NCBI GenBank assembly: GCA_963737155.1
Contig: CAVTRN010000002.1
Location: 1,568,001 to 1,632,000, forward strand
Reading direction: 5' to 3'
Length of the DNA stretch: 64,000 bases
Origin: Nitrospirota bacterium
GTDB lineage: Bacteria; Nitrospirota; UBA9217
How positions within the stretch are numbered: position 1 is the first letter of the stretch; each line of letters starts with the position of its first letter. Both the position numbers and the translations under genes were made by a program. Positions 26,796 through 31,544 of the stretch are shown here, piece after piece. The notes under the pieces were generated by a model, which worked only from the letters and a program-made list of their open reading frames with translations, did no database searches and was not told where the DNA came from.

Positions 26796-27257
26796 TTTTC
26801 GAATTATGTCTATACACGCTTTCTCTGGCGATAAGGAAGGAAGCAAGGATGCAGAAGCACTCTTCGTTAAGGTTGCCAGAGGAAATGGTATGGACAACAC
26901 CGACCTCGACACTTGCATTGAAGAGGGGCTGTTCGAGGAAGGTGACTATCAGATTTTCTTTGTTCAATCTGAGGATTAATAGCTCCTCATTTACTTAGTA
27001 CCTGTCTTATTCACTATATTACGCCCTATTATTTTGCGTTCCCATACTCTACCTTTAGTTGGAGTGCCGGTTCTTCTGGCAAAAAATTGTTTACCAGCAG
27101 ATAAACCGCTTGCTCTTTTCCTGTTCCATGAAAAGCCAAATTTAGCGCCCATATTATACCCCGCTTTCCTCGCTTTTCTAAACTTACTTAAATTATATCA
27201 GAATTGGAAAGGGGCTAGAGGGAACGGTTTGCAAAAGTTTTCATTACCTCCCCTGAG

Positions 27258-27415
27258 CGTCGCCCGAACACCGGGAATGCTTTCGGACGAGTGGATGCTC
27301 ATTGGGAGAGGAGGACACCGGTTTTGGCGGACGCATCGATCTCCTGGCCATTGCACCTGATGGTTCGCTTGTACTTATTGAACTAAAGCGCGACCGTACG
27401 CCACGCGAAGTAGCC
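27258..27415 (+). pseudogene. NucS/EndoMS-like PD-(D/E)XK nuclease fragment
   Basis: LSDEWMLIGR/EDTGFGGRIDLLAIAPDGSLVLIELKRDRTPREV (frameshifted). Confidence 0.65.
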
Positions 27416-27610
27416 CAACCCCAAAATCATCGGGAGCACGGCCTTTATAACAGAAATCACTTCGTCATGAAGTAGCCCGCTCGTTTCACGCAATAACAAT
27501 GTACGTACGGGGCAGACAGTCCACCAAGACTGAGTGAATTACCCCGCAGCAAGCTGCGGGGCATCGGAACTTGAAACCTTAAAAAAGCACAACAAAGAAG
27601 CTGAAGACTT

Positions 27611-27629
27611 ATCCTGGCTTCGCCAGGAT
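27611..27629 (+). terminator. stem-loop immediately 5' of the group IIC intron insertion site
   Basis: ATCCTGGC-TTC-GCCAGGAT perfect 8-bp stem followed by GTCCTTTTCATC. Confidence 0.65.
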
Positions 27630-27641
27630 GTCCTTTTCATC

Positions 27642-28331
27642 GTATGCCAGGCATGACGCATTGTATTTTTAGTACGGGCCGATCAGATATGGTGTCTGAA
27701 CGGTGACTCGGAGGTGCAAGTCCTCTACGGGCCTTGATGGAAGGAACCGTTAGCCGAACAGCAAGGGTGTCCGGGGCGACCCGGAATCTGAAGGAAGCTG
27801 TAAGCAAAGTCCCGGCCTGACGAACAGAAACCGCATATGAGGCAGCCACATCTGGGCGAGAGGGCGATAATACTCAAAGCCCGATAACCATCCAGAAGGT
27901 GTGGAAGTAGATGCGGCGGGTATATGGGATGAAGGTCATGCGTCTTACCCTGGGAGATCTATCGATTTGCCTTGTGCTATCGATGCCGTAAGGTGTTGAG
28001 ATGAATCGACAGAAGTCAGCAGAGGCGGTAGTAGTCCAGCAACCAACTGGATGAAGCGCCGAACATGGTAGGCTGGGAAGGTGCCGAAGCCCCGACGAAC
28101 GAAGGAGACGCACACAAGAAGGCTGAGATGCCGGAGGACTCCCGGATGGTAGCGGGCGGAACCCGTCAGAGTACGGAGAGGGAGCGCCAAGCGTTCGCGG
28201 CGACAGAGGAGAACACTAAACCGCAAGTCGTAAAACTTGGACTTGATTAGTCTACCATGAACCGCCGTATACGGAACCGTACGTACGGTGGTGTGGGAGG
28301 ACGGCGGGGGCGACCCCGCCTCCTACCCGAT
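27642..28331 (+). ncRNA. group II intron, class IIC, ORF-less (IEP deleted)
   Basis: 5' GTATGCCAGGCATGACGCA pairs with TGCGTCTTACCCTGG (~27939); domain V GAACCGCCGTATACGGAACCGTACGTACGGTGGTGTGGGAGG (CGC triad); domain VI ending CCTCCTACCCGAT; only a 61-codon IEP remnant in domain IV. Confidence 0.9.
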
Positions 28332-28627
28332 CCAGCAGCAAGCTGCTGGGTATTTCAGGACTGTTTTATAAACATTATCGCGTTACCAAGCAATTGCGCT
28401 GCGATACAACTTTCATCGTAGATATGCCCTTCCTGTCTCCTTTTATCCCTTTGTTGTTCTGTTTTCTTGTAGTTTGTTCCTGTTTCCCTGGAACGGGTGG
28501 TATACTTTTAGTTACGAATATGTTTTGGCAGCTGGCCAGACATGGCAGGTTTAAAAGCATGCCTGAAAGTATGAAGTAGTTCTCTCAACCCTTTCGAATA
28601 CAGTGACGGAAGAAAGGAGTAACGATC

Positions 28628-29155
28628 ATGAAAGAAGAACTAACAGATAGGAAAGGCTCGATTCTGATGCCGGTTCTGGCAGGCAGTGTCCTAGGGGCCG
28701 GGTTAGCGCTCTTGCTGGCGCCGAAATCGGGAAGCGAGACCAGGAAAGACCTGAAGCGGTTCGCCGATCGGTTCTCACAGGCCATTGAGATAGGCAAGGA
28801 CCTCTATGGAGAAAGCAGAATGTTTGTGAACAAAGCCGTGGAAGCCGGCAAGAAGGCCTATGTGGAGGAAAAGCCCCTAGATCTCTCTAACAACAAGGGG
28901 CGCACACTCCTGATCCCGATCCTGTCGAGCGGTATCATCGGGGCAGGCATTGCGCTTCTACTGACGCCGAAATCGGGAAGCGAGACAAGGGAGAACCTGA
29001 AGCGGTTCGCATCGAGCACACGGGAGCAGGTTGTTTCCGCCATTGACAAGGGCAAGGATCTCTACGAGGCAGGCAAAGGAGCGATAACGGAGGCCGTGAA
29101 AGTTGGCAAGAAAGCGTACGGCGAAAGTAAAGGGGAGCTTGGGGAGGCGGTGTAA
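28628..29155 (+). CDS. YtxH-domain protein (two tandem YtxH units)
   Basis: GAGLALLLAPKSGSETRKDL and GAGIALLLTPKSGSETRENL; RBS AAGGAG. Confidence 0.85.
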   Translation: MKEELTDRKGSILMPVLAGSVLGAGLALLLAPKSGSETRKDLKRFADRFSQAIEIGKDLYGESRMFVNKAVEAGKKAYVEEKPLDLSNNKGRTLLIPILSSGIIGAGIALLLTPKSGSETRENLKRFASSTREQVVSAIDKGKDLYEAGKGAITEAVKVGKKAYGESKGELGEAV

Positions 29156-30434: not shown

Positions 30435-31544
30435 TACACAGCGCACTAATTAATTGCGCATAATTTACGGACAATATCGTTGCCCGATGTCCACACCCTG
30501 AATCTTGATTCCACTGACCGTACAACATCCTCAAGCGTCGGGAAGTATCGGTTATGCAAACAGAGCCTTCGCGTTAATTTCCATAACCGCTCAATAGGGT
30601 TTAGATCAGGGCTGTAAGGAGGCAGAAAATCCAACATGAATTGAGGCTCATGTTGGCTTCGCCAATCTGCATGGAGCTTGGCATGATGGTATTTGGCATT
30701 ATCTGTTATGACAACGACGCGACGACCGCTTCGGGAACTTATCCTCCGGAGATGTTTGAGAAATGTATGGAACGTCACGGCGTTAAACTTTTCCTCCTCT
30801 CTCTGAAAAGCCAATTTCCCGTCACGCAGACGGATAGCTCCAAAATAACCCACGCTCTTGCGAGTGGGATGGTGCAACAATACAGGGTCCTTCTGTTCGG
30901 GAGGTACCCACATCAGACAGCGTGATCCATATTGCTGAAAATGAACTTCATCAGTCGACCACAGATCGATTTTATTATCGGCTACGAGCCTTCTGAGTTT
31001 TTTTATATTCTTCCTGACGTTCGGGATCGGCCCGAGCAATCAGAGGACGCGGTTTACGCCGACGAAAACCAAAGGATTTAAACATGTATTGGCACTGCCG
31101 AACCCCTAATGTTATTCGATACCGCTTCTTAATGAAGGCGGCCAGCCCTTTGCCATCCCAGAGGCCACTGGCTATTCCTACAGACTCTGGCGGTTGCCGC
31201 AGTACCGTGTTGATTTCCTCCAACTGCTTATCGTTCAAGCGTCGGGGGCGGCCAGATCGTTCTCCTTCTACCAAGCCAGCCAGTCCTCTGTCTTCAAAGC
31301 GTCGGACCCAATATTCCACAGTTCGAGGCGAGTCACCCAGGAGATGGCTAACTTCCGGACAGCTCATTCCCTGGGCGACTAGCAATACGCCATGTAGTCG
31401 GTGGTCGTATCGTGACTCTTCCGAGCGACGGATTTCATCCTGTAATCCAAGAACAATGGTTGATGCATCGGTAATGGTCAATGGTTTCATGAATACAGGA
31501 TATCATATTTTTTATTAATACGCAATTACTTATTGCGCTATGTA
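30435..31544 (-). mobile_element. complete IS630-family element
   Basis: Imperfect terminal IRs TACACAGCGCACTAATTAATTGCG / TACATAGCGCAATAAGTAATTGCG; TA target duplication at 30433-34 and 31545-46. Confidence 0.93.
30446..31490 (-). CDS. IS630 transposase in two overlapping frames (HTH orfA 30975-31490, DDE orfB), probable programmed frameshift
   Basis: DEVHF, VITDNAKYH, FLPPYSPDLNPIERLW; A7 run at 30998-31004 in the overlap. Confidence 0.88.

Follow-up and report, generated by a model that had tools for sequence, protein, structure and literature searches.

A class C group II intron lacking its reverse-transcriptase gene lies, very probably by chance, in the terminator-like hairpin of an IS200-derived mini-element

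The DNA analyzed here, called the window throughout, is a stretch of 64,000 nt from contig CAVTRN010000002.1 (assembly GCA_963737155.1, positions 1,568,001 to 1,632,000, forward strand) of a Nitrospirota bacterium of the UBA9217 lineage. Its genome (G000) is 100% complete and consists of two contigs. The closest relatives of a gene neighboring the intron all carry the label of Nitrospirota metagenome-assembled genomes, with 82-92% amino-acid identity among the best 27 matches. Within the window, a group II intron interrupts a 150-bp mini-element that shares its ends with an insertion sequence (IS) of the IS200 type. The intron has no open reading frame (ORF) for a complete intron-encoded protein (IEP), the reverse transcriptase (RT) and maturase of such introns, and is called ORF-less below. 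An account made earlier from the letters of the window, here the sequence-only reading, had already proposed this nesting. The features of the locus, in window coordinates, are the following.

27533-27641, + strand: left 109 bp of the mini-element (right-end side in IS orientation), 99% identical to positions 52-160 of the intact-copy query
27542-27561, no strand assigned: subterminal palindrome CCCCGCAGC-AA-GCTGCGGGG, end hairpin of the mini-element, with 27 exact genomic copies, 22 of them in mini-element flanks
27611-27629, + strand: inner hairpin ATCCTGGC-TTC-GCCAGGAT with a perfect 8-bp stem, from sequence reading and a terminator scan
27630-27641, + strand: T-rich tail GTCCTTTTCATC, 12 nt, whose last 3-5 nt are the putative intron-binding site 1 (IBS1) at the 5' exon end, from sequence reading and predicted pairing
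27642-28331, + strand: group II intron, ORF-less, assigned to class C (IIC), 690 nt, from Rfam, a second copy with 1 mismatch in 690, relatives and a consensus fold
27866-27870, + strand: candidate exon-binding site 1 (EBS1) GAUAA in domain 1, loop of the hairpin GAG..CUC, suggested by comparing loops and exons across relatives
28065-28250, + strand: 61-codon remnant of the IEP in domain 4, leader only, from the ORF list, tblastn with a relative's IEP and the lack of a Pfam domain
28262-28291, + strand: domain 5, 30 nt, with CGC versus AGC in the Rfam consensus, from the Rfam alignment
28295-28328, + strand: domain 6, in which the bulged A at 28325 is the candidate branch point, from the Rfam alignment and sequence reading
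28332-28372, + strand: right 41 bp of the mini-element (left end in IS orientation), 100% identical to positions 161-201 of the intact-copy query, with a right boundary common to the copies

The intron was located by sequence reading and by an Rfam scan of the whole window. Three models match above their gathering scores: group-II-D1D4-3 (RF02001; 27770-27944, 145.7 bits), group-II-D1D4-1 (RF01998; 27977-28059, 64.1 bits) and Intron_gpII, which covers domains 5 and 6 (RF00029; 28260-28331, 46.3 bits versus a gathering score of 40). The intron opens with GTATG at 27642 and closes with ..CCCGAT at 28331. A second full copy lies on contig C1 (C1:364819-365508) and differs at a single base of the 690, at window position 28074. 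The flanks of the two copies diverge exactly at both intron ends; for this reason, and because 30 copies of the host site are uninterrupted, the ends are fixed. This is a real group II intron, and its boundaries are settled.

Comparison of eight members of the intron lineage gave a consensus fold of 123 predicted pairs, of which 33 show compensatory changes. Since these 33 pairs are kept by changes on both sides, the ribozyme part has stayed under constraint. The domain 1 closing helix is present and is kept in the eight-sequence alignment (columns 7-10/311-314 and 14-18/302-306), the distal helix of domain 5 covaries with the copies in genomes G011 and G014, and the A at 28325 is unpaired in the Rfam alignment of domain 6. 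Rfam and the consensus fold together show domains 1-3, 5 and 6 to be intact. The three Rfam matches and the fold bear out the intron of about 690 nt with closing helix, domain 5 and domain 6 that the sequence-only reading had described. Its deviant 5' end, GUAUG, is also real and is a trait of the lineage.

Domain 4 contains a single ORF, of 61 codons, without any Pfam domain. What it is a remnant of is indicated by a full-length relative in the congener G014 (locus L069), a 1884-nt intron downstream of a terminator with the 5' end GUGCG. This relative is 76-77% identical to the window intron over intron positions 65-586 and contains an ORF of 528 codons whose product has RVT_1 and GIIM domains. 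In tblastn, residues 47-109 of the L069 IEP match window positions 28050-28238 (63% identity, E 1.6e-15), and the match of this IEP to solved class C RTs starts at ORF residues 106-109. The window remnant covers the residues before that point and is therefore leader only; the catalytic and maturase domains are all deleted. The truncated RT ORF of the sequence-only reading is thus confirmed. A lone fragment elsewhere in the genome (L005 1463-1726; G000:C2:2144173-2144321) is 79% identical to the leader remnant (intron positions 420-568). It has no ribozyme parts around it and adjoins a 469-aa ORF of unknown kind.

The intron is assigned to class C through its relatives and the hairpins at its insertion sites; the features of the L069 IEP and of domain 5 point to the same class, and the earlier assignment, from the letters, to the ORF-less introns of this class holds. 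The best solved relative of the L069 IEP is the GsI-IIC RT (6AR1, 502 bits); the IEP scores 366 bits with the 7UIM maturase, 140 bits with LtrA, 117 bits with the 6ME0 maturase and 415 bits on TIGR04416. The 30-mer of domain 5 is identical in at least 120 DNA stretches from many phyla, including Bacillaceae, lactobacilli, Pseudomonas and many metagenome-assembled genomes. Its triad position reads CGC, its distal helix is four positions shorter than the Rfam consensus, and the EBS1 candidate is 3-5 nt long. We take a CGC triad, a shortened domain 5, a short IBS1 and the lack of an EBS2 to be marks of class C.

The element that the intron interrupts spans 27533-28372 and runs AGTGAATTA...CTGTTTTATAAA. 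It had been recognized in the sequence-only reading and is real; its right end, at 28372, lies 14 nt beyond the one proposed there. Besides the interrupted copy in the window, 21 intact ones (97.5-100% identity) and four diverged ones (80-92%) are present in the genome. The host site as such occurs 31 times, and 30 of these copies are uninterrupted and read CCTTTTCATC followed directly by CCAGCAGC, exactly the empty junction that had been predicted. The right part of the mini-element consists of the palindrome CCAGCAGC-AA-GCTGCTGG (28332-28349) and the terminal 23 nt, which end in TTTTATAAA. Removal of the intron restores the ninth base pair of this palindrome, as had been foreseen and as is seen in all 30 empty copies. 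This palindrome and the one at 27542-27561 are real and exceed chance: the search pattern matches five times in the window versus 0.04 matches expected.

The left boundary AGTGAATTA is common to 22 copies, whose flanks vary except for one A on the left. Among these 22 copies, neither a target duplication nor a terminal inverted repeat was found. The exact 33-mer of the mini-element site has no match in the contigs of other genomes; by similarity search, related mini-elements are present in several other genomes of the genus, including one at 93% in G011.

The mini-element has both of its ends in common with an IS of about 615 bp that is present in nine copies (88% identity across 75 nt on the right, 85-91% across 34-42 nt on the left). 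Between these ends lies a single gene on the opposite strand, encoding a Y1 transposase, TnpA, of 140-147 aa, with seven of the nine frames intact. On PF01797 the TnpA frames of the nine loci score up to 157.6 bits; the TnpA score on NF033573 (transpos_IS200; cut-off 55) is 165.5 bits. The 140-aa ORF shows HVH and a tyrosine. The IS copies carry the end hairpin CCCCGCAGC-AA-GCTGCGGGG with one stem mismatch. With both IS ends, no transposase gene and many copies, the mini-element is, as judged from its sequence, a non-autonomous derivative of the IS200/IS605 family, which agrees with the identity first proposed for it. Miniature palindrome-ended derivatives of this kind go by the names PATE and MITE. 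The mini-element has no transposase gene and the intron no RT gene, so both would need factors in trans, as the sequence-only reading had stated.

Two other interpretations of the palindromes were rejected. A REP/RAYT origin does not fit the transposase, which scores 45.4 bits on the REP-associated model (cut-off 80) versus 165.5 on the IS200 model, and CRISPR repeats do not fit palindromes that come in pairs within a 150-bp unit dispersed over both contigs. The core CCCCGCAGC-AA-GCTGCGGGG also occurs with other flanks, with 143 matches genome-wide at up to three mismatches. The genome further contains 22 Y1 TnpA matches and 24 TnpB-like matches, hence several IS200/IS605 families and derivatives.

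The intron sits behind a second, inner hairpin of the mini-element. As the sequence-only reading had noted, its 8-bp stem is perfect and the intron starts 12 nt past it, after the tail GTCCTTTTCATC; this distance is inside the range of the other sites of the lineage (0-13 nt). In IS orientation, a further hairpin comes after that of the left end, immediately before tnpA; the opposite strand of this further hairpin corresponds to 27611-27629. The inner stem is kept in the IS200 copies by a compensatory change (GAC/GTC versus GGC/GCC). A terminator scan independently flags 27611-27629 as terminator-like. The inner hairpin together with TTTT mimics an intrinsic terminator, the structural target of class C introns.

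This rule of insertion holds at every site of the lineage that was examined. Seven genomes supplied 19 such sites: nine from G011, five from G000 and a single one from each of G003, G010, G001, G027 and G014. In every case the intron starts 0-13 nt past a stem of 6 bp or more. This stem belongs to an unrelated hairpin with a T-rich tail at 17 sites, to domain 6 of another copy of the intron at the G027 site and to the mini-element at the remaining one. At the G027 site (L072 1-726; G027:C158), a 599-nt ORF-less intron directly follows domains 5 and 6 of another copy, which reflects either a tandem insertion past domain 6 or a repeat that was collapsed in the assembly.

Comparison of loops and exons makes GAUAA (27866-27870) a plausible EBS1 that would pair with IBS1. 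In G011, the corresponding loop is AUAAA and most 5' exons have UUUAU at their end; in G001, the loop is GAAAA and the exon ends in UUUUC. At the C1 site, GAUAA can form five pairs with UUGUU, two of them wobble.

Taken together, chance insertion is in our view the very probable origin of this arrangement, with an ORF-less class C intron landing at a terminator-like hairpin that an IS200-derived mini-element happens to carry. A 150-bp non-autonomous IS200 derivative, movable by the Y1 TnpA of nine full-length relatives, would have lain in an intergenic stretch, and the intron would later have entered it on the strand that is antisense to the transposase gene of the parent IS. There it would have reverse-spliced into the DNA and been reverse-transcribed by an enzyme provided in trans. 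On the entered strand, the 8-bp hairpin and its TTTT-rich tail would be read as an intrinsic terminator, and the short IBS1 (..AUC) would pair with the EBS1 loop (GAU..). The nesting would then be an accident of mimicry, with neither a homing preference nor a partnership. Several points weigh against this account. At the window site, the pairing of GAUAA with AUC is limited to 3 bp (AUC/GAU); the G003 copy misfits the EBS1-IBS1 pairing altogether. The host genome has no intact group II RT in searches with PF00078, PF08388, TIGR04416 and a class C IEP, so that the trans enzyme is an assumption. Movement of the mini-element by the IS200 TnpA in trans is suggested by shared ends and near-identical copies. 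Finally, the runs that hold the region are soil metagenome contigs, and transcription and splicing of the intron are putative.

The sequence-only reading had suggested that the multicopy mini-element is the preferred target of the intron lineage. If so, it would be a homing site and the intron the cargo of a mini-transposon, a proposal favored by the two intact transposon ends that flank the intron, by the possibility that TnpA could in principle move the 840-bp composite, and by the 31 identical targets on offer. The distribution of the intron argues otherwise. One of the 31 mini-element sites is filled, and no second copy of the composite was found in the genome. Across the lineage, 18 of the 19 insertions lie outside the mini-element: the C1 copy follows an unrelated terminator, none of the 14 sites in the six other genomes is within such an element, and all nine copies in G011 follow ordinary terminators despite the 93% mini-element relative present there. 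We therefore regard the nesting as incidental, and a preferred target or cargo relationship as very unlikely. The nesting had been held to be incidental if the palindromic element had no other copies and other intron copies lay after unrelated terminators; other copies of the element do exist, and it is the second observation that makes the nesting incidental.

Still less credible, to the point that we give it almost no weight, is that the two intron copies arose by duplication or recombination at the DNA level, the intron being a dead relic without retromobility. The genome indeed has no RT now, and the metagenome contigs that hold the region carry no expression information. Against this, identity stops exactly at both intron ends with unrelated flanks beyond, both sites obey the hairpin rule of class C, and all ribozyme domains listed above are intact. 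Contigs of four metagenome runs were placed on window positions 27000-29000. One contig of 829 nt (X2) joins the unique upstream flank to the intron and represents the occupied state. Only one joint passes over 27642-28331; its shorter arm measures just 30 nt, so that it is indistinguishable from the 21 intact mini-element copies and uninformative on an empty allele. RNA runs shared no more than small fractions of the sequence words of the region.

A chance insertion by reverse splicing calls for a source of RT. Full-length IEP-coding copies of the intron, which the sequence-only reading had proposed to look for, were not found in the host genome by the RT profile and class C IEP searches. These searches yielded only one split RT gene, three fragments with stop codons and two leader remnants. 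The split gene is the genome's sole RT gene. Its intron is of another class (RF02005, D1D4-6), and an insert of about 330 bp divides the gene (L016 about 1897-2247; G000:C1:831942-832293). This insert lies between RT motifs, has inverted-repeat ends and is probably another miniature transposon. Four further matches to the domain 5/6 model, three of them above the gathering score, occur at G000:C2:2019803, C2:1696248, C1:1327189 and C2:1404197. In the 3-kb loci around them, no D1-D4 model match and no RT was found, and they may be other ORF-less introns or fragments.

The ORF-less form is not confined to this genome. The two G000 copies differ by one base, and the form has therefore moved recently. 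G003 has a 690-nt ORF-less copy with 91% identity, and shorter forms occur in G010 (644 nt), G001 (647 nt) and G027 (599 nt). G011 has eight copies of 641-643 nt, 99.7-100% identical, at eight different terminators. The shorter forms are without the leader remnant, and the ORF has therefore been lost, or further trimmed, more than once. The ninth G011 copy (L201; G011:C2:132300-133354, minus strand) is interrupted within domain 5 by an insert of unrelated sequence. The letters at the L201 junction recur as loose ends at window position 28289 in contigs of two metagenome runs.

The distribution of RT genes over these genomes is uneven. Group II RTs are present in G003, G010 and G001. G011 (90% complete, 20 contigs) gave no match in three RT searches (IEP protein, PF00078 and TIGR04416), and G027 (98% complete) gave none above the cut-off of any RT model; for assemblies derived from metagenomes, such absence is weak evidence. 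An unseen helper enzyme acting in trans is our preferred explanation for the spread of the intron. The alternative is that the lineage spreads or acts without any IEP, in an RNA-only manner of the HYER kind, in which the ribozyme would cut or reverse-splice into single-stranded DNA hairpins and host polymerase or repair would fix the copy. The near-identical copies in G000 and G011, both without an intact RT among the matches, the like result for G027, the persistence of the ORF-less form across species and the maintenance of the ribozyme fold by compensatory changes are what this alternative would predict, and HYER, as described in PMC12990946 and PMC11754743, are IIC introns of the ORF-less kind that hydrolyze DNA without protein. 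On the other side, the assemblies are metagenome-derived, and an RT on plasmids or phages, which often remain unbinned, could be missed; three of the six genomes with ORF-less members carry group II RTs; and in the account given in PMC11754743, complete protein-free DNA integration is reported for one organellar IIB intron only. We judge RNA-only spread to be improbable, if less so than a preferred target, and hold to a helper in trans. The broader proposition that the GUAUG-marked ORF-less class C lineage keeps colonizing terminator hairpins in this Nitrospirota genus by an IEP-free route, even where no RT can be found, is to our mind no more probable, and we advance it only as a long shot.

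Two neighbors of the locus are recorded for completeness. A 57-codon remnant (..IDLLA..DGSLVLIELKR..) lies at 27302-27475 on the + strand and ends about 60 bp before the mini-element; its motif resembles that of a PD-(D/E)XK nuclease. On the minus strand at 30446-31490, two overlapping ORFs of 197 and 171 aa resemble, as judged by eye, the halves of an IS630-type transposase.

The locus illustrates cleanly, in a natural setting, that class C introns pick their targets by shape: a hairpin and T-run within a mobile element were hit like a true terminator. The 30 empty copies of the host site provide an exact view of the insertion before and after the event. ORF-less IIC introns emerge as a persistent, multi-copy lineage in this genus, found also in genomes where no helper enzyme was detected. 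Should the enzyme truly be absent there, the ribozymes would spread independently of any IEP. The genomes would be useful material for the question of how HYER-type ribozymes move.

As in IS200 of the IS200/IS605 family, a Y1 HUH TnpA of 140-147 aa is the only gene of the parent IS, and in an alignment of nine IS copies with one mini-element copy the hairpins are subterminal; terminal inverted repeats and target duplications are lacking; the 150-bp derivative keeps the ends only.

The intron itself can be set beside the ORF-containing class C introns, among which B.h.I1 and O.i.I1 are named (PMC4424553, PMC4748821), together with GsI-IIC (6AR1) and the E. rectale intron (7UIM). These are likewise inserted a few nucleotides past a terminator hairpin and have a short IBS1, and the domain 5 30-mer of the window intron is common to many Bacillota and Pseudomonas records. 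In contrast to them, the window intron is without an RT/maturase gene and has the 5' end GUAUG instead of GUGYG. A 2015 review describes ORF-less introns as rare in bacteria and nearly always found alongside a related IEP-encoding intron (PMC4424553). The IEP of a related intron is said there and in PMC3245105 to be able to act in trans for ORF-less introns sharing the genome, and ORF-less copies mobilized in trans are documented in a cyanobacterium (PMC2882425). HYER ribozymes, described since 2024, are ORF-less class C ribozymes that hydrolyze DNA and RNA without protein (PMC12990946, PMC11754743). Like the window intron, they are about 0.6-0.7 kb long without a protein-coding region (637 nt in HYER1 versus 690 nt here) and have a short target-recognition sequence. 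The window intron differs in keeping a 61-codon IEP leader and in the GUAUG start of its lineage.

The nesting adds no new principle, as both ORF-less IIC introns and introns inside mobile elements were already known. RmInt1 in ISRm2011-2 is a group II intron that homes into an insertion sequence, and in IStrons a group I intron is fused to an IS605-type element. Introns of the IIC-attC type are known from the attC hairpins of integrons (PMC3001079), and in another described case an IS200/605 element lies beside, and is not nested in, an intron-bearing cassette array (PMC7923331). As in the IS-homing introns, the IIC-attC introns and the IStrons, the intron described here lies in another mobile element, at a DNA hairpin. 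In contrast to these systems, it shows no site-specific preference for the host element, with one of 31 sites and one of 19 insertions, and it has not been fused with its host into a single unit.

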